Shown in pieces: positions 3,009 to 33,046 of a DNA stretch of 64,000 bases (within the stretch, counting starts at the first letter, position 1; the number at the start of each line of letters is the position of its first letter). A program made the position numbers and the translations under genes. The notes below the pieces were generated by a model. The model was not told the DNA's origin and searched no databases. It saw only the letters and a program-made list of their open reading frames with translations. Source of the stretch: an uncultured beta proteobacterium (GTDB taxonomy: Bacteria; Pseudomonadota; Gammaproteobacteria; Burkholderiales; Burkholderiaceae_C); assembly GCA_963784295.1 (NCBI GenBank), contig CAWAQL010000016.1, forward strand, positions 2,715-66,714, in the 5' to 3' direction.

Positions 3009-3307
3009 GGACCGGCGTGACGAGTTGCTGCCGAGTGTAGCGGCAGGAAAAAGTCGCGCAAGATCAGTCGCTTGCGAAAGAGTCTTGATAAACGAACTGA
3101 GCTTCCGCCAATTCTTGGGCCGGTCCGCGGATTTGTCGAGAACGGTTGCTGTGCGCGCCAGCTGGTGACGCCCGATCGATTGGTCTTGTCACGCTGCTCG
3201 GCGCGAGGCTTTCAGCCCTTCAGCCTTTTTTGATCGTTGGACAAACGATCCAGGGGCAGAACACCGACTGCTCGCCTGCAGCAGTCGCACGTCATGCCCG
3301 AGCGGCC

Positions 3308-6617
<3,310 letters not shown>

Positions 6618-6819
6618 GATGGCTGCTCTCGAATGGAAAACGCGCTGCCAGCAACCCAAAACAAAACGGCCCGTTGCTGGTGCAAACGGGCCGTGAGGAA
6701 CGATGAAACGCTGCGCGCGCTAATCCCCTAGCCCGTGGCAAGCCAGTAGTAGCGAGGAGATGGGCACAGCGAACATGTTTTTTCAGTTGGATGAGACGTG
6801 ACGATAGCACGACTCTCGA

Positions 6820-17335: not shown

Positions 17336-17580
17336 AGGAAAGATCAGGGGTTGATAGCGGGAAGGCGGCATTCTAGGCCGCGCAATTCGTGCTTTCCCGA
17401 GCATCCGGGCCGCCGATCGTTTCAGGTACATTGGCCGCGTTGGCCAATCGGCTGGGCCGCTTTCGTGGAGGCGGCCGAGGAAGCAACGAACGTGGCCGGC
17501 ATGCCTCTTCGTACAACGAGCGAACGGGCGGCGGGGCCACGAGGTCCCCAACCCTTATTCACTCATTCGAGGAGACGCAC

Positions 17581-19757
17581 ATGACAGGCACCGCTGCGCT
17601 GATGTTGGCGCTGGTCTGCGGACTGGTCGCTGTGGGCTACGGATTCTGGGCTCGCGGCTGGATTCTTTCGCAGGACCCCGGCAACGCCCGCATGCAGGAG
17701 ATTGCCGCCGCGATTCAGGCCGGCGCTGCGGCCTATCTGGCCCGCCAGTACAAAACGATCGGCATCGTCGGCATCGTGCTTGCAGTCTTGATCGCGATCT
17801 TTCTCGACCTGCGCACGGCGGTGGGTTTCGTGATCGGCGCAGTGCTCTCGGGCGCCTGCGGCTTCATCGGCATGAACGTGTCGGTGCGCGCCAACGTGCG
17901 CACCGCGCAGGCCGCCACGCGCGGCATTGGCCCGGCACTCGACGTTGCGTTCCGCGGCGGCGCGATCACCGGCATGCTCGTGGTGGGCCTGGGACTGCTG
18001 GGCGTCACGACGTTCTACTGGTTCCTGTCGGCCGGTGCCGATTTGACGAACGGCCCGGCACTCGCGCAGTTGCTCACGCCGCTGATCGGCTTTGCTTTCG
18101 GCTCGTCGCTGATCTCGATCTTCGCGCGGCTCGGTGGCGGCATATTCACCAAGGGCGCGGACGTCGGTGCCGATCTGGTCGGCAAGGTCGAAGCCGGCAT
18201 TCCGGAAGACGACCCGCGCAACCCGGCCGTGATCGCCGACAACGTGGGCGACAACGTCGGCGATTGCGCGGGCATGGCCGCCGACCTGTTCGAGACCTAC
18301 GCGGTCACGATCATCGCCACCATGGTGCTTGGCGCCCTGCTCGTCACCACGGCGCCGGTCAACGCGGTGCTCTACCCGCTCGCGCTGGGTGCGGTGTCGA
18401 TCCTGGGCTCGATCGTCGGCTGCTTCTTCGTCAAGGCCACGCCGGGCATGAAAAACGTGATGCCCGCGCTCTACAAAGGCCTGGCGATTGCCGGCGGCCT
18501 GTCGCTGATCGCGTTCTACTTCGTGACCATCTGGCTGATCCCCGACAATGCGATCGCCGCAAGCGGCAGCCAGCTCAAACTGTTCGGCGCCTGCTTCATC
18601 GGCTTGGCGCTGACCGCGGCGCTGGTCTGGATCACCGAGTTCTACACCGGCACCCAATACGCTCCGGTCCGGCACATCGCGCAGGCCTCCACCACCGGCC
18701 ACGGCACCAACATCATCGCGGGCCTGGGCGTGTCGATGCGCTCGACCGCTTGGCCGGTGCTGTGCGTCTGTTTGGCAATTCTGGCCGCCTACTGGCTGGC
18801 CGGTTTGTACGGCATTGCCATCGCAGCGACCTCGATGCTGTCGATGGCCGGCATCGTGGTCGCGATGGACGCCTATGGCCCGATCACCGACAACGCGGGC
18901 GGCATCGCCGAAATGGCCGAGTTGCCCTCGTCGGTGCGCGACATCACCGATCCGCTCGATGCGGTCGGCAATACCACCAAGGCGGTCACCAAGGGCTACG
19001 CGATCGGCTCGGCCGGTCTCGCCGCGCTCGTGCTGTTTGCCGACTACACGCACAAGCTCAAGGCTACGGGCACGCAGTGCGCTTCGATCTGTCCGATCCG
19101 CAGGTGATCGTCGGCCTTTTCATCGGCGGCATGATCCCGTATCTGTTCGGCGCTATGGCGATGGAGGCGGTCGGCCGCGCGGCCGGCGCGGTGGTGGTCG
19201 AAGTGCGGCGCCAGTTCCGCGACATCCCCGGCATCATGGAAGGCACCGCCAAGCCCGAGTATGGTCGTGCGGTGGACATGCTGACTTCGGCGGCGATCAA
19301 GGAAATGGTGATCCCGTCGCTGCTGCCCGTGGTCGTGCCGGTGATCGTCGGTCTGCTGCTCGGGCCCCGGCGCTGGGCGGGCATGTTGATGGGCACCATC
19401 GTGACCGGCCTTTTCGTGGCCATCAGCATGTGCACCGGCGGCGGCGCCTGGGACAACGCGAAGAAGTACATCGAAGACGGCAACCACGGCGGCAAGGGCT
19501 CGGAAGCGCACAAGGCGGCCGTCACCGGCGACACGGTCGGCGATCCTTATAAGGACACCGCAGGGCCGGCCGTCAATCCGCTGATCAAGATCATCAACAT
19601 CGTGGCGCTGCTGATCGTGCCGCTGGTGGTGCGCTTTCACGCAGACGACCTCGCGGCACCGCCGCATGCAACGGGCGCGGTCGTCGTGCCGACGCCGGCC
19701 GTGATGGTTCCGGTGGCGCCCACAGTGCGTGCGCCTGCGGCGAAAACGCCGGGCTGA
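17581..19757 (+). pseudogene. hppA: membrane H+(K+)-translocating pyrophosphatase, interrupted by a frameshift near 19068
   Basis: GAGGAG RBS followed by MTGTAALML. Conserved [56 protein letters not shown] is in frame 1 up to YTHKLKATG. The sequence continues as [31 protein letters not shown]...[12 protein letters not shown]...[20 protein letters not shown] in the frame of ORF 18264..19757. Confidence 0.85.
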
Positions 19758-20290
19758 TCAAAGGTACTGACCGGCGAAGTTGGGTTCCTGGTGCTGCAAA
19801 CTTCCCGGTCTGACATGGTCGGGCCAGCGCCTTGCTCTGGCACCTGGATACGCAAACGCTTTCAGCAGCGTTCAGCCTTCGATGCCCCTGGGCCGGACCG
19901 ACCCACCCAGGAGTGGCACGGCGGGGCGGGCAACTGTCGCATGCGCACCCATACGGGGCGTTAAAATCATCTCCCCATCAGCTTCCAACGATCGGCACGC
20001 GCTGTTGCCTGTGTGCCTTGAGATTCGCCACCGATGACTGAGCATGCGCCTGCCAGCCGCCACTGCCCGATCGGGACTCAGTCGACAGCCGACGACGCGC
20101 TGCCCCATGTGCGCCATACGTGGGCAAGCGGCGGCAGCCCATCCAATTCAGTTGGCGCAGCCTTGATCGCGCAAAACGTTTTCGACGTGGTGGTGTTTGA
20201 AAAAGCATATTCATCTCACGGTATGCACACGGCGACACCGGCCCGCGCGGCTCGATCAGGATACGGCCAATCGGTTTGCCCCACATTCCG

Positions 20291-21172
20291 ATGAGCGCCG
20301 TTCTTCCACAACACGAGACGGGTGCCCGCCCTGCACCGGCGTGTCCCGAGCCGTTCGGGCGGGTGCCGCGCCGTCGAGTGCTTGCCTGCTGGCATGCGTT
20401 GGCGTTCTATTTCTGTTTGATCGCGCTGGGCATGCTGATGCTGGGGAGCTGCTTGGTTGGTGGTCTGCTGTCGCGGACACTGGCGCCGGGACGGCGGTAC
20501 GCCAGCGGACGCGCACTGATCAGCTGGTGCGCACGCAGCTTTTTTCGGCTTGCCAGTGCGTTGGGTCTGGTGCGCTTGGACCTGTCTGCGCTGGACGCGT
20601 TGAATGCCGAGAGCGGCCTCATCATTGCCCCCAATCACCCGTCGATGCTCGACGCGTTGTTGGTTGCTTCGCGCGTGCGGCGCACCGGCTGCATCATGAA
20701 AGCCGGACTTTGCAGCAACCCTTTTCTGGGCGCCGGCGCCCGGCTTGCAGGCTATATCGGCAACGGTTCGGTCAACGGCATGATTCGACAGGCCGCAGCC
20801 GACTTGCGCAGCGGCGGCAAGGTGCTGATCTTTCCCGAGGCCACGCGCAGCCCCACGGCGACGTCGGTCAACGCGCTCACCGCCGGCATCGCATTGATTG
20901 CCCAGCGCGCGGAGGCGCCGATTCAGACGGTGCTGATCGAAGCCGAGTCGCCTTACCTGGGCAAGGGCTGGCCCCTGTTGCGGCTACCGGCGCTGCCCTT
21001 GCGCTACCGCGCCACGCTCGGCCCACGATTCGTCGTGCAGGCCGATCGCCGTCGGACCTTAAGTGCGATGCACCGCTTCTACGCCGATGCGCTGGGCAAC
21101 GCCGAGTGGCAGCGCGCGCCCGCTCGCGCCGGCGCCAGGGACCGCGTCGATGCGGCGTTGGCCGATGTCTGA
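20291..21172 (+). CDS. lysophospholipid (PlsC-type) acyltransferase
   Basis: NHPSMLD (the H-x4-D acyltransferase motif) and IFPEATRS (FPEGTR-like), plus an N-terminal TM segment. First gene of the operon. Confidence 0.8.
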   Translation: MSAVLPQHETGARPAPACPEPFGRVPRRRVLACWHALAFYFCLIALGMLMLGSCLVGGLLSRTLAPGRRYASGRALISWCARSFFRLASALGLVRLDLSALDALNAESGLIIAPNHPSMLDALLVASRVRRTGCIMKAGLCSNPFLGAGARLAGYIGNGSVNGMIRQAAADLRSGGKVLIFPEATRSPTATSVNALTAGIALIAQRAEAPIQTVLIEAESPYLGKGWPLLRLPALPLRYRATLGPRFVVQADRRRTLSAMHRFYADALGNAEWQRAPARAGARDRVDAALADV

Positions 21173-21941
21173 ATCCGCCGCATCGCTCACGCACCTGGTG
21201 CTGATTCCGAGCTACAACGCAGGCGGGCAGGCCGTGCAGACCGTCCGGGCGGCCTTGGCGCAGTGGCAGCCGGTCTGGGTCGTGGTCGACGGCAGCACGG
21301 ACGGCAGCGGCGCGACCCTCGAGCGGCTGGCCGCGACCGAGCCGGGTTTGCGGGTGTTCGCGCTGCCGTATAACCAGGGCAAAGGGGCGGCGGTGCTGCA
21401 TGGGCTCGAAGTCGCCCGGCGCGAAGGGTTCACCCATGCGCTCACGATGGATTCGGACGGGCAGCATCCGGCCGAACTGATCGGCGGCTTCATGGCCGAA
21501 TCGCGCGCGCGTCCGAACGCCATGATCCTCGGCAAGCCGGTGTTCGACGCCAGCGCACCCGCCATCCGCGTCAATGGCCGTAAGCTGTCGAACGGCTGGG
21601 TGCATCTGCAGACGCTGGGCGCCGGCGTCGGCGACTCGCTGTTCGGCTTTCGCGTCTATCCCATCGCGCCACTGATCGAGGTGATGCGCAACCGGCCCTG
21701 GATGCGGCGTTTCGACTTCGACCCGGAAGTGGTCGTGCGTCTGTGCTGGGCCGGCGTGCTACCGATCAACATCGACGCGCCAGTCAAATACCTGAGCGCA
21801 GCCGAAGGCGGTGTGTCGCACTTCCGATATGGGCGCGACAACGTGCTGCTGACCTGGATGCACGCGCGGCTGCTCGCGTCGTTTGTCGGTCGCCTTCCCT
21901 TGCTGCTGTATCGAAAGTTCGCGCGTCGGCATGCGGCCTGA
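21165..21941 (+). CDS. family 2 glycosyltransferase
   Basis: LVLIPSYNAGG...VVVDGSTDGS...NQGKGAAVLHG...LTMDSDGQH (DxD-type GT-A fold). The start overlaps the upstream stop by 8 nt. Confidence 0.85.
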   Translation: MSESAASLTHLVLIPSYNAGGQAVQTVRAALAQWQPVWVVVDGSTDGSGATLERLAATEPGLRVFALPYNQGKGAAVLHGLEVARREGFTHALTMDSDGQHPAELIGGFMAESRARPNAMILGKPVFDASAPAIRVNGRKLSNGWVHLQTLGAGVGDSLFGFRVYPIAPLIEVMRNRPWMRRFDFDPEVVVRLCWAGVLPINIDAPVKYLSAAEGGVSHFRYGRDNVLLTWMHARLLASFVGRLPLLLYRKFARRHAA

Positions 21942-22068
21942 CGCGTGCGGCGGCTTGCCCGCGCGACCCCCGACACGTCAGCCGCCATCAACTACCATCG
22001 CGATGCAGCCCATCGGGCTTGTTGCACCGCCCGGAACGCCAAGTTCGGCCACCGAAAACAACATAGAC

Positions 22069-22389
22069 ATGAGCAATCCCACCGCGTCTTCCGACTCCTC
22101 TGCCGAGCATCCGTCCGTTGACGGCACCGCCGACACCGTGCTGGTGCGGGAGGTGGCCGGGTTGATCGTCGCAGCGCTTAACCTCGAAGTCGACCCGCAG
22201 CAAATCGGCCCGTCCGACCCGTTGTACGGAGAAGGGCTCGGCCTGGACTCCATCGACATGCTCGAAGTCGCGCTGGTGGTGTCCAAGCAGTACGGCTTTC
22301 AGATGCGCGCCAACGACGAGAGCAACGTAGCGATCTTCGGCTCGCTGCAAAGCCTTGCCGACCACATCGCGGCGCACCGGACACAGTGA
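22069..22389 (+). CDS. acyl carrier protein (dedicated, with a Ser/Asp-rich N-terminal extension)
   Basis: The phosphopantetheine attachment context GLGLDSIDMLEVALVV is present. About 106 aa. Confidence 0.85.
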   Translation: MSNPTASSDSSAEHPSVDGTADTVLVREVAGLIVAALNLEVDPQQIGPSDPLYGEGLGLDSIDMLEVALVVSKQYGFQMRANDESNVAIFGSLQSLADHIAAHRTQ

Positions 22390-23195
22390 CCGTCTGCTGC
22401 GCGCCGCTCGGCGCGCCGCTGCGCAAGTTCTTTCGTGATCCATTCGGCCGCTCCGTGATGATCAGCCCCAACCCCACGCAGGCCAAATCCGATGCGACGG
22501 GCTCAGAGGCGCCGCTGTGGCGCAACCTGGCCACCGCGTTGGGAGCGGTCGCGTTGCTGGTGGGCTACCAAGTGATCGTGCATCGGCTGATCGATGACGG
22601 AGGCCACCCACTTGCGACCGTATTTCTGGGGCTCGTGCCGATCGCGCTGGTGCTCACGATGCTCGTACGCAGCGTGGGGTGGCGTGTCGATGCATGGTGG
22701 CTAACGCTCGCAATCGCTGCCGGTGGCTGGCTGTCGCGAGATCGCCTGCAGGCGCACATCGGCTGGATCTACCTGGTCGACCATGTCGGCACGCAGTGCC
22801 TGCTGAGCCTGATGTTTGCCCACACCCTGCGGCGTGGGCACACGCCGCTGATCACGCAGTTCGCGTTGCGGGTGCACGCGGGCGTCCTTAGCGCCGAGCA
22901 ATTCGTCTATACCCGGCACGCGACGCTCGCGTGGAGCGCATTCTTCGCGCTCGTTGCGATCGCCTCCGGTGTGTTGTTCGCATGGGCGCCATTGCCGGTC
23001 TGGTCGTCTTTCGCCAATCTGCTGACGTTGCCCTTGGTGGCTGCGATGTTCATTGGCGAGTATGCAGTGCGGCGGCTTGCGCTGCCGCATGAGCCGCACG
23101 TCTCGATCGCCGCCGGCGCGCGTGCGTTCTGGGCCAGTCGTCAATCGGCCGACCGATCGAACGCGTCCGGCCAGCCGCAACGATGCCCGCGCTGA
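22386..23195 (+). CDS. integral membrane protein (COG4648-like, as found in aryl-polyene-type clusters)
   Basis: GTGA overlap with the ACP stop. It has five or more hydrophobic spans. The alternative ATG at 22458 is equally possible. Confidence 0.55.
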   Translation: MTVCCAPLGAPLRKFFRDPFGRSVMISPNPTQAKSDATGSEAPLWRNLATALGAVALLVGYQVIVHRLIDDGGHPLATVFLGLVPIALVLTMLVRSVGWRVDAWWLTLAIAAGGWLSRDRLQAHIGWIYLVDHVGTQCLLSLMFAHTLRRGHTPLITQFALRVHAGVLSAEQFVYTRHATLAWSAFFALVAIASGVLFAWAPLPVWSSFANLLTLPLVAAMFIGEYAVRRLALPHEPHVSIAAGARAFWASRQSADRSNASGQPQRCPR

Positions 23196-24880
23196 TCGGC
23201 CACCGCCACCCGTGCGCATTGCTTGCGTGGCGCCAAGGCAAACCCATCACCGCTGCCAGATATCTGCACGACGTGGCGCGGGTTGCGGCGCTGCTGCCCC
23301 ATCGCGGCCCGGTCGTGAATCTGTGCACAGACCGCTACCACTTCGCGGTCGGCTTCGGTGCCGCGTTGCTGGCCGGCCACACTTGTCTTCTTCCGCCCAC
23401 ACACGGCGACGAGATGCTTGAGCGGCTGCGCCTCGAATACCCGGAGCTCTACCTGTTGAGCGATCGGCCGCAGCGTGCGCTCGCACTGACCCAGCTCGCC
23501 TACCCCTCGGACGATGCAGCGGCAGGCGCTGCAGCGCCGACGTTCGTGGTGCCCGACATCGATCCCACATTCGTCGCTGCGCGCGTCTTCACGTCCGGCT
23601 CGACCGGGCGGCCCACCGCCCACGACAAAACCTGGGGCAAGCTGGTGTCGAACGCACGCGCCGAACACAGGCGCCTGACGGCCGGTCTGACGCCAACGTT
23701 CACCGTCGTCGGTACGGTGCCCGCGCAGCACATGTACGGTTTCGAGTCGACGGTTCTGATGGCCCTGCTGAACGGCGCCGCGTTCGATGCGAGCCATCCG
23801 TTTTATCCGGCCGACATCGCCGCCACGCTGCGGCAGGTGCCGGCGCCGCGTCTGCTGGTGACCACGCCGTTTCATCTGCGCGCGGTGCTGGATGCAAAGG
23901 TGGTACTGCCGCCGCTCGCGCTGCTGGTCAGCGCCACCGCGCCGCTGGCGCCGCAGCTGGCGCACCGCGCGGAGCGCACGCTCGGCGTGCCGCTGCTCGA
24001 GATCTACGGCTGCACCGAGGCTGGGCAGCTCGCCACACGGCGCCCCGTCGACAGTGCCGTGTGGCAGACATTCGACGGCGTGCAGTTGGCGGCAGCACAA
24101 GACGGAGGCTGCATGGCGAGCGGTGGTCACGTGGAAGGTACGGTCCCACTGTCGGATCAGATCGAGCTGCAGTCGCCGCAGACGTTCCTGCTGCTCGGGC
24201 GCAGCGCCGACATGGTCAACATCGCCGGCAAGCGCACCTCGCTTGCGCATCTCAACCACCAGTTGAATTCGATCGACGGCGTGCACGACGGCGCGTTTCA
24301 CCTGACCGCGGCAGCAGCCGACGAAGGGCTCGCGCAGCGCGTGCAACGGACGCAGGCATTTGTGGTGGCGCCCGGGCTTGACGCCGCGCAGGTTTTGCGC
24401 GGCCTGCGCAGCCGGATCGACCCGGTGTTCATGCCGCGGCCGCTGCATTTCGTCCCCAAGCTGCCGCGCAACAGCACCGGCAAGCTGCCGACCGCGGCGC
24501 TCGATGCGCTGGCCGCCCGGTTCGCGTCGAAAGGCCGACCGCCGATGGAACCTGTCGAATACATGGTCGATCCCGCGCACCCGGCGTTGGCAGGCCATTT
24601 TCCCGGGCAGCCGATTCTGCCCGGTGTGGTGTTGCTTGACGAAGTCATGCGTGCGATCGAGGCGACGTCCGCGACTCAAGGCAACGCCTCCCCGAGCTCG
24701 AAGCCGTTGGTCGACCGCTGGACCTTGACGATGGCCAAATTCCATCGGCCTGCCGGCCCGGGTGCGCACTTACAAATCCGGCTTGATCCGCTGGCTGGCG
24801 GCGCGATCTCATTCGTGGTGCTGCAGGGCGAGCACAAAGTCGCGTCTGGCAGCTTTGCAACGCAGGCACGTGCCGAATAA
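23183..24880 (+). CDS. AMP-dependent synthetase/ligase (acyl-ACP/CoA synthetase-like) fused to a C-terminal FabA/FabZ-like hotdog dehydratase
   Basis: Adenylation motifs FTSGSTGRPTAH, YGCTEAG, GRSADMVNIAGKR and LPRNSTGKL come first. The same frame, with no stop, then gives VDPAHPALAGHFPGQPILPGVVLLDEVM (hotdog dehydratase His motif). Confidence 0.8.
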   Translation: MPALIGHRHPCALLAWRQGKPITAARYLHDVARVAALLPHRGPVVNLCTDRYHFAVGFGAALLAGHTCLLPPTHGDEMLERLRLEYPELYLLSDRPQRALALTQLAYPSDDAAAGAAAPTFVVPDIDPTFVAARVFTSGSTGRPTAHDKTWGKLVSNARAEHRRLTAGLTPTFTVVGTVPAQHMYGFESTVLMALLNGAAFDASHPFYPADIAATLRQVPAPRLLVTTPFHLRAVLDAKVVLPPLALLVSATAPLAPQLAHRAERTLGVPLLEIYGCTEAGQLATRRPVDSAVWQTFDGVQLAAAQDGGCMASGGHVEGTVPLSDQIELQSPQTFLLLGRSADMVNIAGKRTSLAHLNHQLNSIDGVHDGAFHLTAAAADEGLAQRVQRTQAFVVAPGLDAAQVLRGLRSRIDPVFMPRPLHFVPKLPRNSTGKLPTAALDALAARFASKGRPPMEPVEYMVDPAHPALAGHFPGQPILPGVVLLDEVMRAIEATSATQGNASPSSKPLVDRWTLTMAKFHRPAGPGAHLQIRLDPLAGGAISFVVLQGEHKVASGSFATQARAE

Positions 24881-24902
24881 GAGGCAACCAGACACGTCCG
24901 TG

Positions 24903-25904
24903 ATGCACGGCGAATCACAGCACGTCAGTTCCGCTTCTTCGGCGCCGGCTGCTCCGCACGCGGCTGGCCCAGGCTTGAGCAGCCGCACTGGTTGGTCGGC
25001 CGAGCGCGAGCGCGGCAGCGTCGCGATGCTGTCCGCGTTCGCCTGGGTGGCGTTGCGCTTCGGGCGGCGCTTCGCACGCCTGCTGCTGTGGCCGACCACC
25101 GCGTATTTCTTCTTGTTCGGCGGCGCGGCGCGGCACGCGTCGAAAAGTTGGCTGAACCGCGCGTTGCCGCGGCCAGCGACCTGGCGCGACGGCTTGCGGC
25201 ACGTGTTCGCGTTCGCCTCCGTGACGCTGGACCGGGTCTACTTTCTGAACGCGCGCTTTGATCTGTTCGACCTGCACGTGCACGGCGCCGAGCACTGCAT
25301 CGGCCATTCGCGCGTCCCGCCTGGCATCTTCATGCTGGGTGCGCACGTCGGGAGTTTCGAGGCCACGCGCGCAATCGCGCGCCGACAGCCGGGGCTCGAA
25401 GTCGCACTGCTGATGTATGAGGACAACGCCCGGATGATCGCCCGCGTGCTGGAGGCCATCAACCCGCAGGCGGCGCAGGAGATCATCGCGCTGGGCCGGC
25501 TCGACTCGATGCTGCACCTGCGCGACCGGCTTGATCAGGGCGTGGTGGTCGGCATGCTGGCCGACCGCACGCTGGCCGACAACGACGTGCTGATCGTGAC
25601 GTTCTTCGGGCGGCCGGTTGGGCTGCCGGCCGGGCCGTTCCGGCTGGCTGCGATCCTGCGCCGGCCGATCCTGCTGATGTTGGGGATGTATCGCGGCGGC
25701 AATCGGTACGATGTGCATTTCGAGCCAATCCACGATTTTTCCGTGCCGACGCAGGCACATGGCTCACGCGCCGAAGGCGTGCAGCAGGCGGCCGAACGGT
25801 ACGCCGCGCGGCTTGAACATTTCTGCCGCCTGCACCCTTACAACTGGTTCAATTTCTATGATTTCTGGCAACAAGGCCAAGCCGCTGCCAAGCCGCCGAC
25901 CTGA
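24903..25904 (+). CDS. LpxL/HtrB-superfamily (COG4261-like) acyltransferase
   Basis: An N-terminal TM region, an H-x4-E motif (GAHVGSFEA), and conserved GMLADR and FFGRPVGLPAGPFRLAA segments. Confidence 0.65.
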   Translation: MHGESQHVSSASSAPAAPHAAGPGLSSRTGWSAERERGSVAMLSAFAWVALRFGRRFARLLLWPTTAYFFLFGGAARHASKSWLNRALPRPATWRDGLRHVFAFASVTLDRVYFLNARFDLFDLHVHGAEHCIGHSRVPPGIFMLGAHVGSFEATRAIARRQPGLEVALLMYEDNARMIARVLEAINPQAAQEIIALGRLDSMLHLRDRLDQGVVVGMLADRTLADNDVLIVTFFGRPVGLPAGPFRLAAILRRPILLMLGMYRGGNRYDVHFEPIHDFSVPTQAHGSRAEGVQQAAERYAARLEHFCRLHPYNWFNFYDFWQQGQAAAKPPT

Positions 25905-26520
25905 ATTGCGGCGCCGGGCGAGTGCCCTGCTGCTCGCACTGGCTTGGGCGCTCGCGCTGCCCGCACCGAACGCATCGGCGCAACCGGCTCAATCAACGGG
26001 CGCGTTCGACTTGGCGGCATTGCTTTCGATGCTCGGCAAGGCCACGCCGTCGCGCGCCACGTTCAACGAACGCAAGTTTCTGCGCCAGCTCGACGCGCCG
26101 GTCGACTCCGCCGGCGAATTGTTGTTCGAGCCACCCGCCACGCTCACGATGCGCACGTTGGTGCCCAAAGTCGAGACGATGCGCGTGGACGGCCAGACCC
26201 TGACGCTGGAGCGCGCCCGGCTGCAACGCACGCTGCAACTGGCCGAGCACCCCGAGATCGCGGTGTACGTGGAGCCGATCCGCGCCGCGCTGGCAGGCGA
26301 CCGTGCGGCACTCGAGCGCGGTTACCGAGTCGAGCTGCGCGGCGATTCAGCGCAATGGAAGCTGCAGCTGACGCCCAAGGCTGGCGCAGTCGGGACGGTG
26401 CCCATCGCGGTCGAATCGCTGCAGCTGTCCGGCCGCGCGGGCGACGTGCGCCAGATTGAAGTGCGCCTGACCGACGGCGACTACTCGATCATGAACATCG
26501 AGCCGGCAGCGCCGCTCTGA
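25858..26520 (+). CDS. LolA-like outer-membrane lipoprotein carrier family protein
   Basis: Signal peptide (ALLLALAWALALPAPNASA), then F-E-R-K-type LolA-like beta-barrel text (ATFNERKFLRQLDAPVDSAGELLFEPPATL). Its position before the MMPL gene matches aryl-polyene clusters. The start is uncertain, with a 47-nt overlap. Confidence 0.6.
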   Translation: MISGNKAKPLPSRRPELRRRASALLLALAWALALPAPNASAQPAQSTGAFDLAALLSMLGKATPSRATFNERKFLRQLDAPVDSAGELLFEPPATLTMRTLVPKVETMRVDGQTLTLERARLQRTLQLAEHPEIAVYVEPIRAALAGDRAALERGYRVELRGDSAQWKLQLTPKAGAVGTVPIAVESLQLSGRAGDVRQIEVRLTDGDYSIMNIEPAAPL

Positions 26521-26539
26521 CGACCGCTGCCTCGCGTCG

Positions 26540-29122
26540 ATGAGTCCACTGCGCGCATCGGTCCGCCCGCCACATCCGCGCGGCCGCTGGTTCGCATTCG
26601 GCTTGTGGCTGGTGTTCGTGCTGGCTTGCACCATAGTGATCGCGCGCACCGAGTTCCGCGCGGATTTCTCCGCGTTCCTGCCCAGTCACCCGACGCCAGC
26701 GCAGCAGGTGCTGGTCGAACAGCTCAAAAGCGGCGCCGGCGCCGGTCTGCTGCTGGTGGGCATCGAGTCGGCTGCCAAAGGCACGCCGGCGGCCGCCGAA
26801 GTCGCCCGGCTCGCTCATTTAAGTGCGCAATTTGCGGCGCGGCTGCGGCAAAACGCCGCCATCCAGTCGGTGCAAAACGGCGAACCGCTGCGTGACGATG
26901 GCGGCGCGGCGACCGACCTGCTGTTCGTCAATCGATATCTGCTCTCACCCGCCGTCGACGCGCAGCATTTCGGCGTTGCCGGGCTGCACGAAGCGCTGCA
27001 GGCGAGCATCGATGCGATCGCATCGGGCAGCGGTCTGATGGTCAAGCAAATGCTCGCGCGCGACCCAACCGGAGAGATGCTGCAGTTGGTCGACCGGCTG
27101 CTGCCCACCGGCGGCGGCCCCGCCGTGCGCAACGGCCGCTGGTTCGATGCGAGCGGGCGCACCGCGTTGCTGCTGCTGCAGTTGCGCGCCGGCGGCGACG
27201 ACATCGACGCACAGCAGCGCGCGATGGGGCAGGTGCGCAGCGCGTTCACGACCACCCTGGACGAGGACGGTACCACGCCCGCTGCGTCCGCCGGTGGTGC
27301 CGCGCAGGCGGCGCCGACGCTGTTGATCAGCGGCCCCGGCACGTTCGCAGTCGCCTCGCGCGACGCGATCAAGGGCGCGGTGGAGCGGTTGTCGATCGTG
27401 GGCTCGGTGCTGATCCTGTCGCTGCTCTACACGATCTATCGGTCGTTGGCCGCCCTGCTGCTGGGCGTGCTGCCGGTGTTGACCGCGGTGCTTGCCGGCA
27501 TCGCGGCGGTCTCGCTCGGGTTCGGCACCGTGCACGGCATCACGCTGGGGTTCGGTGCGACGCTGGTCGGCGAGGCGGTGGATTACGCGATCTATCTGTT
27601 CGTGCAACGTGGCGGCGGCGGTTCCAACGCGGCCGATGCGGCGATGACGGCCGATGGCTATGCGCGCCACTTCTGGCCGACGATTCGGCTTGGCGTGCTG
27701 ACGTCCGTCTGCGGCTTCGGTGCGCTGCTGCTGTCGGGCTTCCCGGGCTTGTCGCAGCTCGGCTTGTTCTCGATCGCGGGCATCCTGAGCGCGGCGGTCG
27801 TCACGCGCTGGGTGCTGCCCGGCCTGCTGCCGGTCCGTTTTTCGGTGCGCAACACGGCGACGCTGGGTGCGGCGCTCGCCCGCGGAATCGTCCAGGCGCG
27901 CCGGCTGCGCGTCGCGGCGCTGCTGCTCGCCGGGGCGGCCTTGGTGGTCGTGCTCCTGGGTCAGCGCCAGCTGTTCAACGCCGAGCTGCTGTCGCTAAGT
28001 CCGGTGCCGCTCGCTGCGCAACGGCTCGACGGGCGGCTGCGCGGCGAAATGGGTGCGCCCGACGTGCGCCACCTGATTGTGTTGCGCGGCGACAGTGCAG
28101 AGGACGCGCTGCAACGCTGCGAGGAAGTGGCCCCGACGCTCGACCGCGCGGTGGCTGAGGGCGTGCTTGCCGGATGGCGGGCGCCGTGCACGTACCTGCC
28201 GAGCGTGCGCACGCAGCTGGCCCGCCAAGCCGCCCTGCCAGCCGATGCCGAACTGCGCGCGCGGCTGTCGCAGGCGCTTGCCGGGCTGCCGCTCAGGGCG
28301 ACCACGATCGAGCCGTTTTTCGCCGATGTCTCAGCCGCGCGTACAGCTGCGCCGCTGACCCTGGCCGATGTGCAGCGCGCGCCGTTTGCCGCCGCGTTGG
28401 AGGCCATGTTGAACGAAATCGACGCCGACGACGGCCGTCCCGCGCACTGGAACGCGTTGGTGCAGCTGCAGCCGCCGCACCCGCGGCTCAACGCAGCCGC
28501 TGGTCGGCAATCGGCAGGCAACGATCGTGAAAATATCGACCGCAGAGATGTCGCCCGCGAAGGCATCGACGCCAATGTCCTGCGCCTGCGCCTCGCACCG
28601 CTGCTGAACGCCGATACGGTGCTGCTCGACTTGAAGACCGCCTCCGATGATCTCTATCAGGACTACCTGCGCCAGGCGCTGCGGCTGTCGGCCGTGGGGA
28701 TGGTTGCGATCGCACTGGTGCTGGCGGCCAGCCTGCGCTCGGCCCGACGGGTAGCGGCCGTGTTCCTGCCGCTGCTGGCCTCGGTCGCGCTGGTGACGGC
28801 CGGGCTGCATCTGCTCGGCGTGCCCCTCACACTGCTGCATCTGGTCGGGTTGCTGCTGACGGTGGCAGTGGGCTCCAATTACGCGTTGTTTTTCGAAGCC
28901 CAGAGCCGCCCCGGACCGCAAGACCCGCGCATCCACGCCTCGCTGCTGTTCGCGGTGCTGACCACCGTGGCCGGCTTCGGGGTGCTGGCGTTCGCATCCG
29001 TGCCGGTGCTGGCGGCGATCGGCATGACGGTCGGGCCCGGTGCGGTGTGCGCCTGGTGTTTGTCGGCTATTCTGAGCCGGGCGCCCGACGCCGCGACGCC
29101 CACCACCCCGCCGCCGCGATGA
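26540..29122 (+). CDS. MMPL/RND-superfamily exporter (COG4258-like)
   Basis: Intact at 860 aa. Two hydrophobic bundles (around aa 270-440 and 700-850) are separated by large soluble domains, which is typical MMPL architecture. Confidence 0.8.
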   Translation: MSPLRASVRPPHPRGRWFAFGLWLVFVLACTIVIARTEFRADFSAFLPSHPTPAQQVLVEQLKSGAGAGLLLVGIESAAKGTPAAAEVARLAHLSAQFAARLRQNAAIQSVQNGEPLRDDGGAATDLLFVNRYLLSPAVDAQHFGVAGLHEALQASIDAIASGSGLMVKQMLARDPTGEMLQLVDRLLPTGGGPAVRNGRWFDASGRTALLLLQLRAGGDDIDAQQRAMGQVRSAFTTTLDEDGTTPAASAGGAAQAAPTLLISGPGTFAVASRDAIKGAVERLSIVGSVLILSLLYTIYRSLAALLLGVLPVLTAVLAGIAAVSLGFGTVHGITLGFGATLVGEAVDYAIYLFVQRGGGGSNAADAAMTADGYARHFWPTIRLGVLTSVCGFGALLLSGFPGLSQLGLFSIAGILSAAVVTRWVLPGLLPVRFSVRNTATLGAALARGIVQARRLRVAALLLAGAALVVVLLGQRQLFNAELLSLSPVPLAAQRLDGRLRGEMGAPDVRHLIVLRGDSAEDALQRCEEVAPTLDRAVAEGVLAGWRAPCTYLPSVRTQLARQAALPADAELRARLSQALAGLPLRATTIEPFFADVSAARTAAPLTLADVQRAPFAAALEAMLNEIDADDGRPAHWNALVQLQPPHPRLNAAAGRQSAGNDRENIDRRDVAREGIDANVLRLRLAPLLNADTVLLDLKTASDDLYQDYLRQALRLSAVGMVAIALVLAASLRSARRVAAVFLPLLASVALVTAGLHLLGVPLTLLHLVGLLLTVAVGSNYALFFEAQSRPGPQDPRIHASLLFAVLTTVAGFGVLAFASVPVLAAIGMTVGPGAVCAWCLSAILSRAPDAATPTTPPPR

Positions 29123-29128
29123 GTTCCG

Positions 29129-29935
29129 ATGAATCTTTTTTCGAGCCACCCGCTGTTGGCCGCTTTGACGCGGCGTCTGGCCATGGCCCTGCTGCTGGCG
29201 CTGGGCGCTGCATCGCTCAGCGGCTGTCTGCCACGGCGCGCGATCACCACTCCGATGGAACGAATCGCTGACCCCGTCCGAGCGGACCAGCGCAGCGACA
29301 CGTTGCTCGTGCTGCTGCCGGGCGCATTCGACGTGCCGAACGACTTCGTGCGCGAAGGCTTCGTCGACGCGGTGCGCGCCCGTCGCATCGACGCCGACGT
29401 GCTGATGATGGACGCACACACCGAGTACTACATGCAGCGCATCGTGCTGGACCGGCTGCTCGACGAGGTGGTGCGACCGGCCCGCGGGCAAGGCTACCGC
29501 ACGATCTGGTTTGCAGGCATTTCGCTCGGCGGCTATGGCTCGTTGTTGTTTGCCAAGGAGCACGGCGAACTGATCGATGGCGTGTTCGTGATGGCGGCCT
29601 TTCTGGGACGGCGCGACATTCCGGCGGCGGTTGCCGCAGCCGGCGGCTTGGGCAATTGGCAGCCCAGCGCCACCACCCCGGACGACCCGGACCGCTACCT
29701 GTGGCAGTGGCTCACCGGCTATGCGCAAACCCCGACCGGTGCCTTCGGCCGCCCGCCGCTCTACGTCGGCTACGGCCGCAGCGACCGATTCGCCGGCAGC
29801 AACGAACTGCTGGCGCGCGAGCTGCCCGAATCGCGTGTTTTCACCACCGAAGGAGGGCACGACTGGGGGCCCTGGCGGCGGCTGTGGGACGCATTCCTGG
29901 ACCGTGCGCCCCTGCCCCGGTTGAATCCTTCGTGA
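29129..29935 (+). CDS. alpha/beta-hydrolase lipoprotein (esterase/lipase-like)
   Basis: Lipobox LSGC after a signal peptide, and the nucleophile elbow GISLGGYG. The start lies 6 nt after the MMPL stop. Confidence 0.7.
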   Translation: MNLFSSHPLLAALTRRLAMALLLALGAASLSGCLPRRAITTPMERIADPVRADQRSDTLLVLLPGAFDVPNDFVREGFVDAVRARRIDADVLMMDAHTEYYMQRIVLDRLLDEVVRPARGQGYRTIWFAGISLGGYGSLLFAKEHGELIDGVFVMAAFLGRRDIPAAVAAAGGLGNWQPSATTPDDPDRYLWQWLTGYAQTPTGAFGRPPLYVGYGRSDRFAGSNELLARELPESRVFTTEGGHDWGPWRRLWDAFLDRAPLPRLNPS

Positions 29936-30786
29936 CCGAAGTCGCCGCGTCGGGCCCGCGGCGAATGAGCGCGCTGCTGCGCGGCTCGATCGGCTTGCAT
30001 CTGGGCGCGGTGGCCGTCACCGCATGGGCGCCGACGCTCTGGCCCTGGACGCTCGGGGCGATCGGCGCCGACCATGCGCTGTTGACGGCCAGCGGACTGT
30101 GGCCGCGCAGCACCTGGCTGGGGCCCAATCTGCTGCGCCTGCCGCCGTCGGCCTGCGCCCGCATCGCGATCACGATCGACGACGGGCCGGACCCGGCCGT
30201 CACGCCGGCGGTGCTCGACCTGCTCGCGCAGCGCAGGGTGCAAGCCAGTTTTTTTTGCATTGGAGAACGGGTGCGCGCGCATCCGGCGCTGGCGCGCGAG
30301 ATCGTGCGCCATGGCCATCACATCGAAAACCACAGCCATCGGCATGCGCACCACTTCTCGTTGTCGGGCCCACGCGCGCTGCTGCGCGAACTGGGCGATG
30401 CGCAAGCCGCCATCGCGGACGTCACCGGCCGCCCACCGGTGCTGTTTCGTGCGCCTGCCGGTTTGCGCAATCCGCTGCTGGAGCCGGTGCTGGCCCGCCT
30501 CGGACTGCACCTGACCAGCTGGACGCGGCGCGGCTTCGACACGCGTGTGCCGGACCCGGACCGCATACTGGCTCGGCTGACGGCCGGCCTGGGTGCAGGC
30601 GACATCCTGCTGCTGCACGACGGGCACTGTGCCCGCACGCAGACCGGCCTGCCGGTGTTGCTGGATGTGTTGCCCCGCCTGCTGGACCGCGCGGAAACGC
30701 TCGGATTGCGCTGCGTTCGCGTCGCCGATGCGCTGGACGACGCGCCTGGGGCTTCACGGGCTGGCGCTTCCTTTCACTCCGGATGA
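29932..30786 (+). CDS. polysaccharide deacetylase (NodB homology domain)
   Basis: ITIDDGPDP (the TFDDG-type motif), SFFCIG and IENHSHRH (the His-His metal motif). GTGA overlap with the upstream stop. Confidence 0.85.
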   Translation: MTEVAASGPRRMSALLRGSIGLHLGAVAVTAWAPTLWPWTLGAIGADHALLTASGLWPRSTWLGPNLLRLPPSACARIAITIDDGPDPAVTPAVLDLLAQRRVQASFFCIGERVRAHPALAREIVRHGHHIENHSHRHAHHFSLSGPRALLRELGDAQAAIADVTGRPPVLFRAPAGLRNPLLEPVLARLGLHLTSWTRRGFDTRVPDPDRILARLTAGLGAGDILLLHDGHCARTQTGLPVLLDVLPRLLDRAETLGLRCVRVADALDDAPGASRAGASFHSG

Positions 30787-31553
30787 CCGACAGGCTGCGG
30801 CTGCCGGCCGCGTTGCTCGCGCGCGCGGCGGCGCCCTACCGCAGCGCCGGACTGCACCCATGGTTGTTCGCCTGCGGCAAGTTGCGTGGCGATCCGGTGT
30901 TTGCGGCGTTGCTGCGGCTGGGGCTGATTCCGTCGCACAGCCGCCTGCTCGACTTGGGCTGCGGTCAAGGGTTGCTGGCGGCGTTGCTGTACGCAGCGGC
31001 GGACGCCGACACGGTCGCTTGGCCTCACGGGTGGTCCGACGCCCCGCGGGCGATAGCGCTGCAAGGGATCGACCACGCTGCGCGCGATGTGCGCTGGGCA
31101 CGTCACATGGCGGCATCGAGTCGAGATCGCCGCGCGTCGATGGACTTTGTGCAGGCCGACATCCGGCGCGTGGCGTTCGCCGAGCAGGACGTCGTCGTGT
31201 TGCTCGATGTGCTCCACTACTTGGCGCCGAACGCGCAAGAAGCGTTGCTTGCGCGCGTGCGCGATTGCCTGGTACCGGGCGGCAGGCTGCTGGTGCGCGT
31301 GGCGGATGCGCGGGCGGGTTTTGGCTTCGCGGCCGGCCTGCTCGTTGACCGGCTGGTGCTGGCGATGCGGGGGGCGCTGCGACCTCGGTTGCATGGCCGG
31401 CCGCTGGCCGAATGGCAGCTGCTGCTGCAGTCGCTTGGGTTTTCGCTGCACACGCATCCGATGCACGCTGGCACACCCTTTGCAAACCTGTTGTTGGTCG
31501 GGCAACTCGATCGATCCACCGAACCGTCCGAGAGGCTAGCCACATCTTCATGA
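30783..31553 (+). CDS. class I SAM-dependent methyltransferase
   Basis: Motif I LLDLGCGQGLL, plus DVVVLLDVLHYL and PGGRLLV. ATGA overlap with the deacetylase stop. Confidence 0.8.
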   Translation: MTDRLRLPAALLARAAAPYRSAGLHPWLFACGKLRGDPVFAALLRLGLIPSHSRLLDLGCGQGLLAALLYAAADADTVAWPHGWSDAPRAIALQGIDHAARDVRWARHMAASSRDRRASMDFVQADIRRVAFAEQDVVVLLDVLHYLAPNAQEALLARVRDCLVPGGRLLVRVADARAGFGFAAGLLVDRLVLAMRGALRPRLHGRPLAEWQLLLQSLGFSLHTHPMHAGTPFANLLLVGQLDRSTEPSERLATSS

Positions 31554-31933
31554 GCACCGAATTAAAATTCTCAGGCAGCAAGGCCGTAATCGTGTTTGCA
31601 CACGGTTCGCGCGATCCGCTGTGGCGGCGTCCGGTCGAGGCGGTCGCACAACGGGTGCGCGAGCTGCAGCCGGCGGCCGCCGTCGCATGCGCTTATCTGG
31701 AGATGAGCGAGCCCGACCTGATCCAGGCGGCCGATGCGTTGATTGATGCCGGCGCGCGCCGGGTCGTGGTGCTGCCGCTGTTCATCGGGGTGGGCAAGCA
31801 CGCACGCGAAGACCTGCCACGGCTGATCGAGCAGCTGGCGCATGCGTATCCGGACGTGGTCATCTCGGTGCGGCCGGCGGTGGGCGAGGATCCGGGCTTG
31901 GTCGACGCAATGGCGCGGTTGGCGATCGGCTGA
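31550..31933 (+). CDS. CbiX/SirB-like (sirohydrochlorin chelatase fold) small protein
   Basis: VIVFAHGSRDPLWRRPVE and VVLPLFIGVGKHAREDLP are typical of the single-domain CbiX fold. ATGA overlap with the methyltransferase stop. Confidence 0.7.
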   Translation: MSTELKFSGSKAVIVFAHGSRDPLWRRPVEAVAQRVRELQPAAAVACAYLEMSEPDLIQAADALIDAGARRVVVLPLFIGVGKHAREDLPRLIEQLAHAYPDVVISVRPAVGEDPGLVDAMARLAIG

Positions 31934-31954
31934 GCACGGCTCCATGGCCTTCGG

Positions 31955-32362
31955 TCAGCTGCGCGTCCAGGCCGAGACGCCGAGCCAGCCGACCAAGGTC
32001 ATCGCCACCGAGCCGATGCCGTGCGTGAGCATCGCCCCACCGGCCGCCCACGGCCTGCCGGCGTGCAGCAGGCCAGCGACTTCAGCCGAAAACGTCGAAA
32101 AAGTGGTCAGGCCGCCCAGAAATCCCGTCACGATGAAAAGCCGCCAGGCGGGTGCAATCTGTGGGTGTCGGGAGAACACAGCCAGCGCCACCCCGATCAG
32201 AAAGCCGCCGAGCAAATTGGCGACCAGCGTGCCAGGGGGTAACGCCGGCCAAAGCGCGTTGAGCCACAGGCCGAGCAGCCAACGCAGCAATGCACCGAGC
32301 GCGGCCCCGGCGCCGATCGCAAGCACAGAGCCCAACAGGCTGGAAGGAAATGGCGCGCCCAA
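31955..32362 (-). CDS. crcB: fluoride ion channel CrcB/FluC
   Basis: [29 protein letters not shown] and [13 protein letters not shown] are the canonical CrcB motifs. The start is uncertain (TTG at 32362 or an internal codon). Confidence 0.9.
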
Positions 32363-32463
32363 GCCACGGATTATGCGGCTCGCGTGCGCCTCGGGACGGC
32401 GTGCTTAATCGCCCGACACAGGCGGCTTGCACCGCTCGAATGGGTCGTTCGACCCAAACGCGC

Positions 32464-32865
32464 TCAATAGCGCCAGCCGGCCCCCGGGCCGCGCCCGTGG
32501 CGGTGCCGCCAGTGTCCCCGCGGAGCCCAGCCGATCGGATACACCGCCTGCGGCGCGGCAAAGATCGGCGGGGGCGCGACGACCGCGCCGCCGTAGTACG
32601 GCGGTGCGACGTAGACCGGCCGGGGCTGCACGTAGATGGGGCGGGGTTGCACATACACCGGCTGCGGCTGCACGTAAATCGGCTGCGGCTGGATGTATGG
32701 CTGCGCATACACCGGCGGCGGTGCGCGATAAGTCGGCACGCCGGTGGAGATGCCGACAGACCATGAGACGTGGCCCCCCGCTTGGGCCGCCGCCGGCAAC
32801 ACCATCGCGGCCAGGGCCAGCGCGGCGCTGCCACAGCCGAGCGCGAATCGTCGGATTGAGTTCAT
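32464..32865 (-). CDS. secreted PXPV-repeat protein
   Basis: GGAGAA RBS and signal peptide ([15 protein letters not shown]). A 7-aa repeat Q-P-x-P-[IV]-Y-V follows ([28 protein letters not shown]), and the protein ends in a basic tail. Confidence 0.7.
32608..32720. repeat. imperfect 21-bp tandem repeat (about 5 units) inside the PXPV-repeat gene
   Basis: The plus strand reads ctgcacgtagatggggcgggg / ttgcacatacaccggctgcgg / ctgcacgtaaatcggctgcgg / ctggatgtatggctgcgc... Confidence 0.7.
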
Positions 32866-33046
32866 TGAGGTTCTCCGTTCAAAAACAATTTTCGCAGCCG
32901 TCGGTGCGTCGGACGGGTTGTCCGAAAGCCTTCGTTCTGCTTGGCTTTCCATTCAACGCGACAGCCGCCAATGCGCGCACAACATTGCGTGTGAAACCCG
33001 TCGCAAAAGGTTACCGCAGGTGCGGCAATTTAAACTCTGTGTGCTT

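Follow-up and report, generated by a model that had tools for sequence, protein, structure and literature searches.

Few biosynthetic gene clusters (BGCs) of Gram-negative bacteria are as widespread as the aryl polyene (APE) and xanthomonadin clusters, whose products give protection from oxidative stress. A cluster of this kind without a ketosynthase (KS) gene lies in a 64,000-nucleotide stretch of DNA, referred to here as the window, from contig CAWAQL010000016.1 of an uncultured Burkholderiales bacterium. Positions 20291-31933 of the window hold 12 tightly packed genes, all on the forward strand, which were recognized from a listing of open reading frames (ORFs) and from matches to Pfam and NCBIfam. 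The reading favored here, at a probability of about 0.62, is that this operon constitutes the half of a split xanthomonadin/arcuflavin-type APE lipid pathway that activates the starter, assembles the lipid anchor, and exports the product to the outer membrane. The KS, chain-length factor (CLF), ApeP-type dehydratase, and ketoreductase (KR) of that pathway, probably together with a XanB2-type hydroxybenzoate synthase, would lie at another locus and work in trans on the acyl carrier protein of the operon.

An APE-Type Operon Without an Elongation Module

The relationship of the operon to APE clusters was examined by BLASTP of the window products against the characterized ape cluster of Escherichia coli CFT073. 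In these one-way comparisons, nine products matched ApeD, the N-terminal half of ApeJ, ApeE, ApeG, ApeH, ApeI, the C-terminal half of ApeJ, ApeL, and ApeM, in agreement with a preliminary description of this DNA, which had likened the locus to that portion of APE/xanthomonadin clusters that serves lipid attachment and export. Set against the ape cluster (apeA-R) of CFT073 and Xenorhabdus doucetiae, the window possesses counterparts of ApeD, E, G, H, I, J, L, and M and lacks counterparts of ApeC, O, R, P, Q, K, N, F, A, and B. ApeJ is split into separate genes for a family-2 glycosyltransferase (GT2) and an LpxL-like acyltransferase, and the window adds a NodB-type deacetylase, a lipoprotein hydrolase, and a different methyltransferase; these three products and a CbiX-type protein are without an Ape counterpart in CFT073. 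The E. coli ApeJ (locus L088, 41212-42888) is a fusion of a GT2, which forms its N-terminal half, and an LpxL-like acyltransferase, which forms its C-terminal half; in the window, three other genes lie between the two.

The core set that has been used for APE BGCs consists of the KS apeO/R, the acyl carrier protein (ACP) apeE/F, the CLF apeC, the dehydratase apeI/P, the KR apeQ, and the transporter apeM (Grammbitter et al. 2020, antiSMASH). Of these features, the window contains an ApeE-type ACP, an ApeI-type dehydratase, and an ApeM-type MMPL/RND transporter with a LolA-like partner, and it lacks a KS, a CLF-like KS2, an ApeP-type dehydratase, and an ApeQ-type KR. Searches of the 64 kb by tblastn with the KS, KS2, ApeP, and KR of Burkholderia multivorans and with ApeC, ApeO, ApeP, ApeQ, and ApeR of CFT073 found none of the four functions. 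There was no match in the window to a CLF-like KS2 (PF13723/ApeC), to an ApeP-type second dehydratase, or to an ApeQ-type KR, and no scanned ORF of the window gave the ketoacyl-synt Pfam match expected of an ApeO/ApeR-type KS. The absence of the defining polyketide synthase (PKS) genes, noted in the preliminary description, extends across all 64 kb by both tblastn and Pfam, and tblastn detected no KS fragments. Sequencing error was rejected as the cause of the missing KS: besides the lack of fragments, the operon ends 27 nt from the convergent crcB gene, and the same junction is found in five other assemblies.

Gene Order in Related Clusters

Homologues of the ligase-dehydratase encoded in the operon number in the thousands. 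The comparison made here used 80 loci from GTDB species genomes and several metagenomic contigs, which were scored by tblastn for the 12 window genes, a halogenase, KS, KS2, ApeP, and KR, with flanks of 10 kb. Among the genome loci (L006-L085) whose contig continues past the exporter gene, all have a KS, a KS2 (PF13723), and an ApeP-like dehydratase in the 10-kb flanks, and most also a KR, the sole exception being the clade to which the window belongs. In the contiguous APE-type clusters of Burkholderia, Paraburkholderia, Ralstonia, Curvibacter, Hylemonella, and gammaproteobacterial metagenome-assembled genomes (MAGs) (L001, L010-L085), orthologues with 35-70% identity stand in the same order as in the window. 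The KS module, which was found in these genera, in Propionivibrio, and in several of the gammaproteobacterial MAGs, usually lies directly after the NodB or the methyltransferase gene.

In most of these clusters (e.g., those of Burkholderia, Ralstonia, L063, L081, L083, and L085), the genes for KS, KS2, and the ApeP-like dehydratase come right after NodB or the methyltransferase and are followed by that for KR, which in Burkholderia lies upstream instead; in the clade of the window, the cluster stops at the methyltransferase. Locus L081 runs from the halogenase to GT2, ACP, ligase, ApeI, LpxL, LolA, MMPL, lipoprotein, NodB, methyltransferase, KS, KS2, ApeP, and KR, while L063 and L083 have the order PlsC, GT2, ACP, membrane protein, ligase, ApeI, LpxL, LolA, MMPL, lipoprotein, NodB, KS, KS2, ApeP, and KR. 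All three share the lipoprotein hydrolase of the window, and L081 also shares the methyltransferase and the halogenase. Other arrangements of the KS module are present in Hylemonella (L047, L020), L078, and L079. Judged by gene order, the window is the cluster of its KS-containing relatives minus the last four genes (KS, KS2, ApeP, and KR).

This colinearity bears on whether the operon might serve another envelope glycolipid pathway, similar to APE biosynthesis only in the enzyme families on which it draws, e.g., one producing an N-acylated hexosamine lipid from an ordinary fatty acid. PlsC, GT2, LpxL, NodB, LolA, and MMPL are indeed generic lipid and glycolipid families, and the substrate of the ligase is a predicted one. 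Nevertheless, such a pathway is considered extremely unlikely, as the degree of identity and the identical gene order relative to KS-containing APE-type clusters amount to orthology, the products find the Ape counterparts expected of them in CFT073, and genes for aryl tailoring (the halogenase in relatives, and methyltransferases) accompany the locus.

The preliminary description had also named one specific identity that would change the interpretation, i.e., that the MMPL protein is HpnN and the cluster a known hopanoid or ornithine-lipid locus. This candidate was rejected on NCBIfam scores, the MMPL protein reaching 50 bits against the HpnN model TIGR03480 (cutoff 752) and 20 bits against NF052374 (cutoff 1100).

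A KS-Less Clade Under Purifying Selection

The KS-less layout is confined to a small uncultured Burkholderiales clade that comprises the window, five other full-length loci (L006; L007, on the same contig as L003; L004; L008, on the same contig as L005; and L086), and one locus truncated by the end of its contig (L087). Ligases of this clade are 67-82% identical to the window ligase, and in every KS-less locus the methyltransferase gene is followed by those for CbiX, CrcB, and glutaminyl-tRNA synthetase (GlnRS). In the neighborhood comparison, relatives with adjacent KS and KR genes were found only outside the clade, and the clean recent deletion against which the preliminary description had cautioned was not seen. 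Its view that the locus does not reflect a strain-level deletion is borne out by the same KS-less layout and chromosomal context in the five other full-length loci and by purifying selection. The compact KS-less form is nevertheless plainly derived from a KS-containing ancestor. Locus L086, the most divergent KS-less member, carries an extra gene (4048-4815) between GT2 and ACP for a UbiE-type methyltransferase, which resembles the UbiE-like methyltransferase of the Variovorax S110 cluster.

Pairwise Nei-Gojobori ratios of nonsynonymous to synonymous substitution rates (dN/dS) within the KS-less clade, which are rough estimates at dS values of 0.4-1.3, ranged from 0.06 to 0.5 over the 12 genes and were mostly below 0.3; values of 0.3-0.5 arose only in comparisons with L086 and in one ApeI pair. 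For ACP, ligase, ApeI, LpxL, MMPL, and NodB, dN/dS was as low as or lower than in pairs of KS-containing Burkholderia, Paraburkholderia, Ralstonia, Hylemonella, and gammaproteobacterial MAGs. The genes of the KS-less clade are under purifying selection.

These ratios are relevant to the possibility of a relic cluster, in which the PKS module was deleted in the ancestor of the clade and the remaining genes are slowly decaying or are without a coherent function. A relic would account for the loss of the terminal four-gene module of the colinear relatives, as well as for the state of the halogenase gene, of which a remnant of ~60 codons is left in the window and which is internally deleted in L006. 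Yet none of the 12 genes is broken in the window or in the five other full-length loci, even with ligases that differ by up to ~33% at the protein level; dN/dS matches or falls below that of KS-containing lineages; and ApeI, NodB, ACP, and the hydrolase all retain their catalytic motifs. A relic is therefore thought very unlikely.

The halogenase itself was recognized through the halogenases of L004 and L007, which match window positions 20034-20210 by tblastn with 37-40% identity (E 2e-6 to 3.5e-4). The gene is intact, encoding 444-464 amino acids (aa), at the same position in L003, L004, L005, L086, and L087, and in L006 (~6097-7133) it has lost ~125 aa through the internal deletion. It is degraded independently in the window and in L006, and part of the clade appears able to dispense with halogenation of the aryl head.

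Split Pathways in Azoarcus and Variovorax

A precedent for the partition of these genes is provided by Azoarcus sp. BH72, in which the genes for arcuflavin (xanthomonadin-dialkylresorcinol) are located at two unlinked loci (Schoner et al. 2014, PMC3949708). The first of these, azo0253-0262 (arcM-arcV), encodes a methyltransferase, a polysaccharide (PS) deacetylase, a hypothetical protein, an exporter, a LolA protein, an acyltransferase, a dehydratase, an AMP-ligase, a hypothetical protein, and an ACP, with no KS, while azo3910-3921 encodes a KS, a protein with an N-terminal KS domain, a dehydratase, a KR, a glycosyltransferase, an acyltransferase, the XanB2 chorismatase, and a halogenase (PMC3949708). 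Insertions in arcT (ligase) and in arcK (KS) each abolish the pigment, leaving the mutants colorless, and ArcT adenylates 3-hydroxybenzoic acid (3-HBA) and 4-substituted benzoates (PMC3949708). Compared by published annotation and gene order (PMC3949708 Table 1), azo0262 to azo0253 and window positions 22069-31553 encode the same ten functions in the same order, both without a KS, and the suggestion in the preliminary description that the locus is uncharacterized is not supported in view of this published counterpart. The two systems differ in the placement of PlsC, GT2, and the halogenase, which in Azoarcus are found with KS/CLF/dehydratase/KR and XanB2 at azo3910-3921, whereas in the window PlsC, GT2, and the halogenase remnant are joined to the ACP-to-methyltransferase block. 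In addition, the window encodes ligase and dehydratase as a fusion, in contrast to two separate genes in Azoarcus.

A second case is that of Variovorax paradoxus S110, a member of the Burkholderiales whose KS/CLF genes (vapar_0261-0262) are unlinked from the main cluster, vapar_2669-2682 (PMC3949708, Table S2). Like the window, the main cluster contains genes for ACP, a transmembrane protein, a ligase-dehydratase, an acyltransferase, an exporter, a PS-deacetylase, a methyltransferase, GT2, and PlsC; unlike the window, it keeps a second dehydratase, a KR, and a chorismatase.

The preliminary description had favored a self-sufficient pathway using a pre-formed acid. In such a KS-independent scheme, the ligase would load a pre-formed aromatic acid (hydroxybenzoate or cinnamate/coumarate) onto the ACP, and this acyl group would pass, with no dedicated polyketide extension, to a glycosylated, de-N-acetylated phosphoglycerolipid, which would then be exported; alternatively, FabF and FabG of type II fatty acid synthesis (FAS II) would extend it, with ApeI as a specialized dehydratase. 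The absence of KS, CLF, KR, and ApeP from the 64 kb fits this scheme, as do the maintenance of the layout under purifying selection in five other full-length loci and the best NCBIfam match of the ligase, which is to TIGR02372 (4-coumarate-CoA ligase), though at 119 bits, far below the cutoff. On the other side stands the ApeI-type dehydratase, which is retained with its catalytic motif intact and a dN/dS of ~0.2; this type of enzyme has no known role without a KS/KR cycle, and its retention under constraint argues that chain elongation still happens. Furthermore, every wider relative with enough flanking sequence couples these genes to KS-KS2-ApeP-KR, and the two published betaproteobacterial cases have unlinked KS genes (PMC3949708). 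Finally, the source of the aromatic acid is not encoded at the locus, and trans-acting genes are therefore needed under any reading. A KS-independent pathway is accordingly seen as possible but unlikely. The description of the locus as a bona fide compact variant rather than a broken APE cluster holds with respect to its conservation in the clade under purifying selection; the attribution of self-sufficiency is not supported, given the KS-KS2-ApeP-KR genes that colinear relatives add after NodB or the methyltransferase, the unlinked KS genes of Azoarcus and Variovorax (PMC3949708), and the constrained dehydratase.

Several points weigh against a split pathway in this lineage. A KS/CLF/KR/ApeP locus was found neither in the 64 kb (~20 kb upstream and ~32 kb downstream of the operon) nor in the flanks of ±10 kb in the five relatives. 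All four PKS genes and XanB2 are gone from the window, while the main cluster of Variovorax still has a dehydratase and a KR. The correspondence to the Azoarcus arc genes is one of published annotation and gene order, not of sequence. Lastly, decay of the halogenase in both the window and L006 indicates some ongoing gene loss at the locus.

A Proposed Pathway

The published structure of the APE lipid (APEL) provides a framework for a mechanism. In the APEL, the end product of the enterobacterial cluster, the aryl polyene is attached to the sugar of a glycerol-phosphate-GalNAc lipid (Grammbitter et al. 2020, bioRxiv 10.1101/2020.12.19.423268). ApeD is a lysophospholipid acyltransferase, ApeJ is a glycosyl- and acyl-transferase, and ApeG, ApeL, and ApeM export the lipid (bioRxiv 10.1101/2020.12.19.423268). 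The enzyme set of the window is compatible with this model, and from its homology to ApeH/ArcT, ApeE, ApeI, ApeD, ApeJ, and ApeG/L/M we infer a substrate and an order of steps. A trans-acting KS locus is likewise inferred for this lineage.

In the proposed pathway, the ligase would adenylate a hydroxybenzoic acid and load it onto the ACP. The methyltransferase would O-methylate the aryl head, which would ancestrally also have been halogenated by the product of the gene now lost in the window. Trans-acting KS/CLF and KR, along with the ApeI-like dehydratase, which is normally the partner of ApeP, would build the polyene on the ACP. The lipid anchor would arise by acylation of a lysophospholipid by PlsC and addition of an N-acetylhexosamine head group by GT2, and NodB may de-N-acetylate this sugar. 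The LpxL-like enzyme would then take the aryl-polyene acyl chain off the ACP and attach it to the sugar; as a pair, GT2 and this enzyme are the presumed equivalent of the fused ApeJ. The placement of NodB between GT2 and the LpxL-like acyltransferase follows, by analogy, the logic of NodC/NodB/NodA and LpxC/LpxD, and may apply here. The ApeG-like membrane protein, the MMPL pump, and the LolA-like carrier would bring the finished lipid to the outer membrane, where the lipoprotein hydrolase may remodel it.

Features of the Individual Genes

The locus was delineated from the ORF listing, frame analysis based on GC content at third codon positions (GC3), and inspection of start codons, with domains assigned by Pfam and NCBIfam (Table 1). 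The 12 ORFs and their domain assignments in the preliminary description were reproduced, and the 4-nt start/stop overlaps that it listed at 22386, 29932, 30783, and 31550 proved real on start-codon inspection. One junction is less tight than its statement that nearly all junctions overlap or are separated by 22 nt or less would have it: between GT2 and ACP, the ACP start that is consistent with the orthologues (22069) leaves a gap of ~127 nt.

Table 1. Genes of the operon and neighboring features discussed in the text, with coordinates in the window.
Feature	Coordinates	Strand	Evidence
leuA-like ORFs	3189..6156	-	
H+-translocating pyrophosphatase gene	17389..19757	+	
FAD-dependent (Trp-halogenase-type) halogenase remnant, ~60 N-terminal codons recognizable	20034..20294	+	tblastn
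PlsC-type lysophospholipid acyltransferase (ApeD/ArcD counterpart)	20291..21172	+	PF01553 E 3e-13; ApeD 31% identity, E 2e-22
Family-2 glycosyltransferase GT2 (ApeJ N-terminal half; ArcE)	21165..21941	+	PF00535 E 3e-17; ApeJ residues 2-242, 39% identity, E 4e-52
Acyl carrier protein (ApeE/ArcV counterpart)	22069..22389	+	NF006617 121 bits (cutoff 70); ApeE 44% identity, E 3e-18
Polytopic membrane protein (ApeG/COG4648-like; ArcU position), start 22386 or 22458	22386..23195	+	Weak ApeG match, 22% identity, E 2e-5
Aryl-acid adenylating enzyme/ACP ligase (ApeH/ArcT counterpart, ~23183-24532) fused in frame to ApeI-like hot-dog dehydratase (~24533-24880)	23183..24880	+	Pfam AMP-binding and FabA
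LpxL-family acyltransferase (ApeJ C-terminal half; ArcR), alternative starts 24903, 24870	25026..25904	+	PF03279 E 3e-10; ApeJ residues 272-550, 31% identity, E 2e-38
LolA-like periplasmic lipid carrier (ApeL/ArcQ counterpart), start 25858 or 25906	25858..26520	+	LolA_3 E 3e-20; ApeL 25% identity, E 9e-6
MMPL/RND-type exporter (ApeM/ArcP counterpart)	26540..29122	+	Pfam MMPL E 3e-6; ApeM 25% identity over 640 aa, E 3e-17
Lipoprotein alpha/beta-hydrolase, 268 aa (ArcO position)	29129..29935	+	LSGC lipobox, GISLGG nucleophile elbow
Membrane-anchored NodB-type de-N-acetylase (ArcN counterpart)	29932..30786	+	PF01522 E 2e-28
Class I S-adenosylmethionine (SAM)-dependent methyltransferase (ArcM position)	30783..31553	+	Pfam Methyltransf_23/12/25/11
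Small CbiX-type chelatase, overlaps methyltransferase stop codon	31550..31933	+	Pfam CbiX E 5e-26
crcB fluoride-channel gene	31955..32362	-	
Glutaminyl-tRNA synthetase gene	32744..34886	+	
asd ORF	55124..56077		

Inside the KS-less clade, GT2 is 86-90% identical with a dN/dS of 0.06-0.19, and the ACP, in which the GLDSID serine motif is present, has a dN/dS of 0.10-0.17. The membrane protein matched neither a Pfam nor an NCBIfam family, and its place between ACP and ligase is kept in all related loci. The ligase is 27% identical to ApeH (E 9e-25), the dehydratase matches ApeI with an E value of 6e-7, and an identical database copy of the ligase-dehydratase (P0001) is annotated as PF22818 ApeI-like. 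There is also a weak match (E 1.3e-4) to PDB 6qsr chain A, which we take to be ApeI, although the label of the entry is AMP-dependent synthetase/ligase. The FabZ-type catalytic motif HPALAGHFPGQPILPGVVLLD (HPAxAGHFPGxPILPGVVLLD) of the ApeI-like domain is intact in all eight of the clade sequences. The window, L004, Burkholderia, and Ralstonia encode ligase and dehydratase as an in-frame fusion, and L006, L007, L008, L086, and L087 have separate overlapping genes for the two. Fusion and fission are recurrent among close relatives. The junction is located at 24500-24560 in the window and at ~11300-11360 in L004, L006, L007, and L008.

The LpxL-like gene has a dN/dS of 0.06-0.16 in the inner clade and of 0.28 relative to the most distant member, L086, and the LolA-like protein has a weak NCBIfam match to flexirubin LolA2. 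Matches of the lipoprotein hydrolase to Pfam Esterase/Abhydrolase_1 are below threshold, and a weak PDB match was obtained to 7dq9 (alpha/beta hydrolase). Its orthologues in the KS-containing loci L063, L078, L081, L083, and L085 are 37-48% identical, and those in the clade are 82-88% identical, with a dN/dS of 0.06-0.10 in the inner clade and 0.26 to L086.

The catalytic motifs TIDDG, HSHRH, RAPAG, and LLLHD are all present in the NodB-type deacetylase, which is kept in nearly all related loci. In Comamonadaceae (Curvibacter, Hylemonella), database proteins of ~720 aa (P0024, P0026, P0037, and others) consist of a NodB-type deacetylase fused to an AMP-ligase, and in the Hylemonella loci L020 and L047 the NodB and methyltransferase genes lie between ligase and ApeI. 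The Comamonadaceae arrangement strongly suggests that the pathway includes the deacetylase as an integral component. Orthologues of the methyltransferase, with 43-49% identity, occur in the KS-containing loci L081, L078, L042, L047, and L020, and in L081 and L042 they immediately precede the KS.

The CbiX-type gene, which the preliminary description had counted as part of the cluster, was found beside it in the KS-less clade alone, where CrcB and GlnRS invariably come next, and in none of the KS-containing related loci. Because it accompanies the cluster only in the chromosomal context of this clade, it is treated here as part of that context and is probably not a cluster member.

Genomic Surroundings

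The operon is preceded by genes for a FemAB-like protein, a soluble pyrophosphatase (PPase), and an H+-translocating pyrophosphatase (H+-PPase) and is followed by those for CrcB and GlnRS. The rest of the 64 kb, from Pfam matches of the other sizeable ORFs, is devoted to core metabolism (ilvBHC, leuA, pssA, mdh, sdhAB, gltA, leuCDB, asd, and trpFBA). The crcB gene is convergent with the operon. An Rfam scan of the whole window returned no family at the gathering score, including no fluoride riboswitch near crcB, and a scan of positions 19500-32600 for promoters and terminators found nothing beyond the expectation from shuffled sequence.

Several neighboring genes are interrupted. The H+-PPase gene is divided into two frames by a 1-nt indel near 19060, with positions 2-466 of the Pfam profile in one ORF and positions 465-645 in the next, while the orthologue in L004 is intact (725 aa); the split represents either an assembly error or a pseudogene. 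The GlnRS gene consists of two overlapping frames with a break at ~33650-33750, in contrast to intact proteins of 612-622 aa in relatives, the leuA-like ORFs are fragmented, and the asd ORF is without its N-terminus. Together, these last three cases suggest an error-prone long-read MAG consensus and not real pseudogenes.

Implications

A split xanthomonadin-like pathway with a KS-less locus was already known from Azoarcus and Variovorax, and what is new is the gene partition of this clade. Split architectures evidently exist beyond these two genera, here in a clade of uncultured soil Burkholderiales. When the pathway is split, cluster rules that require a KS (e.g., the antiSMASH arylpolyene rule) miss the half responsible for lipid assembly and export.

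A further conjecture, which is judged rather improbable, is that the clade has no dedicated APE ketosynthase genome-wide and that the operon makes an exported outer-membrane glycolipid with a short aroyl or FAS-extended acyl group instead of a polyene, the ApeI-like dehydratase having been repurposed. If the clade were truly KS-less, it would represent a naturally ‘de-pigmented’ derivative of the most widespread BGC family of Gram-negative bacteria, and if these genomes contain no KS, the locus would define a new class of non-polyene lipid. The natural separation of the late-stage genes (PlsC, GT2, LpxL-like, NodB, hydrolase, LolA, and MMPL) from the PKS could help to assign their functions.

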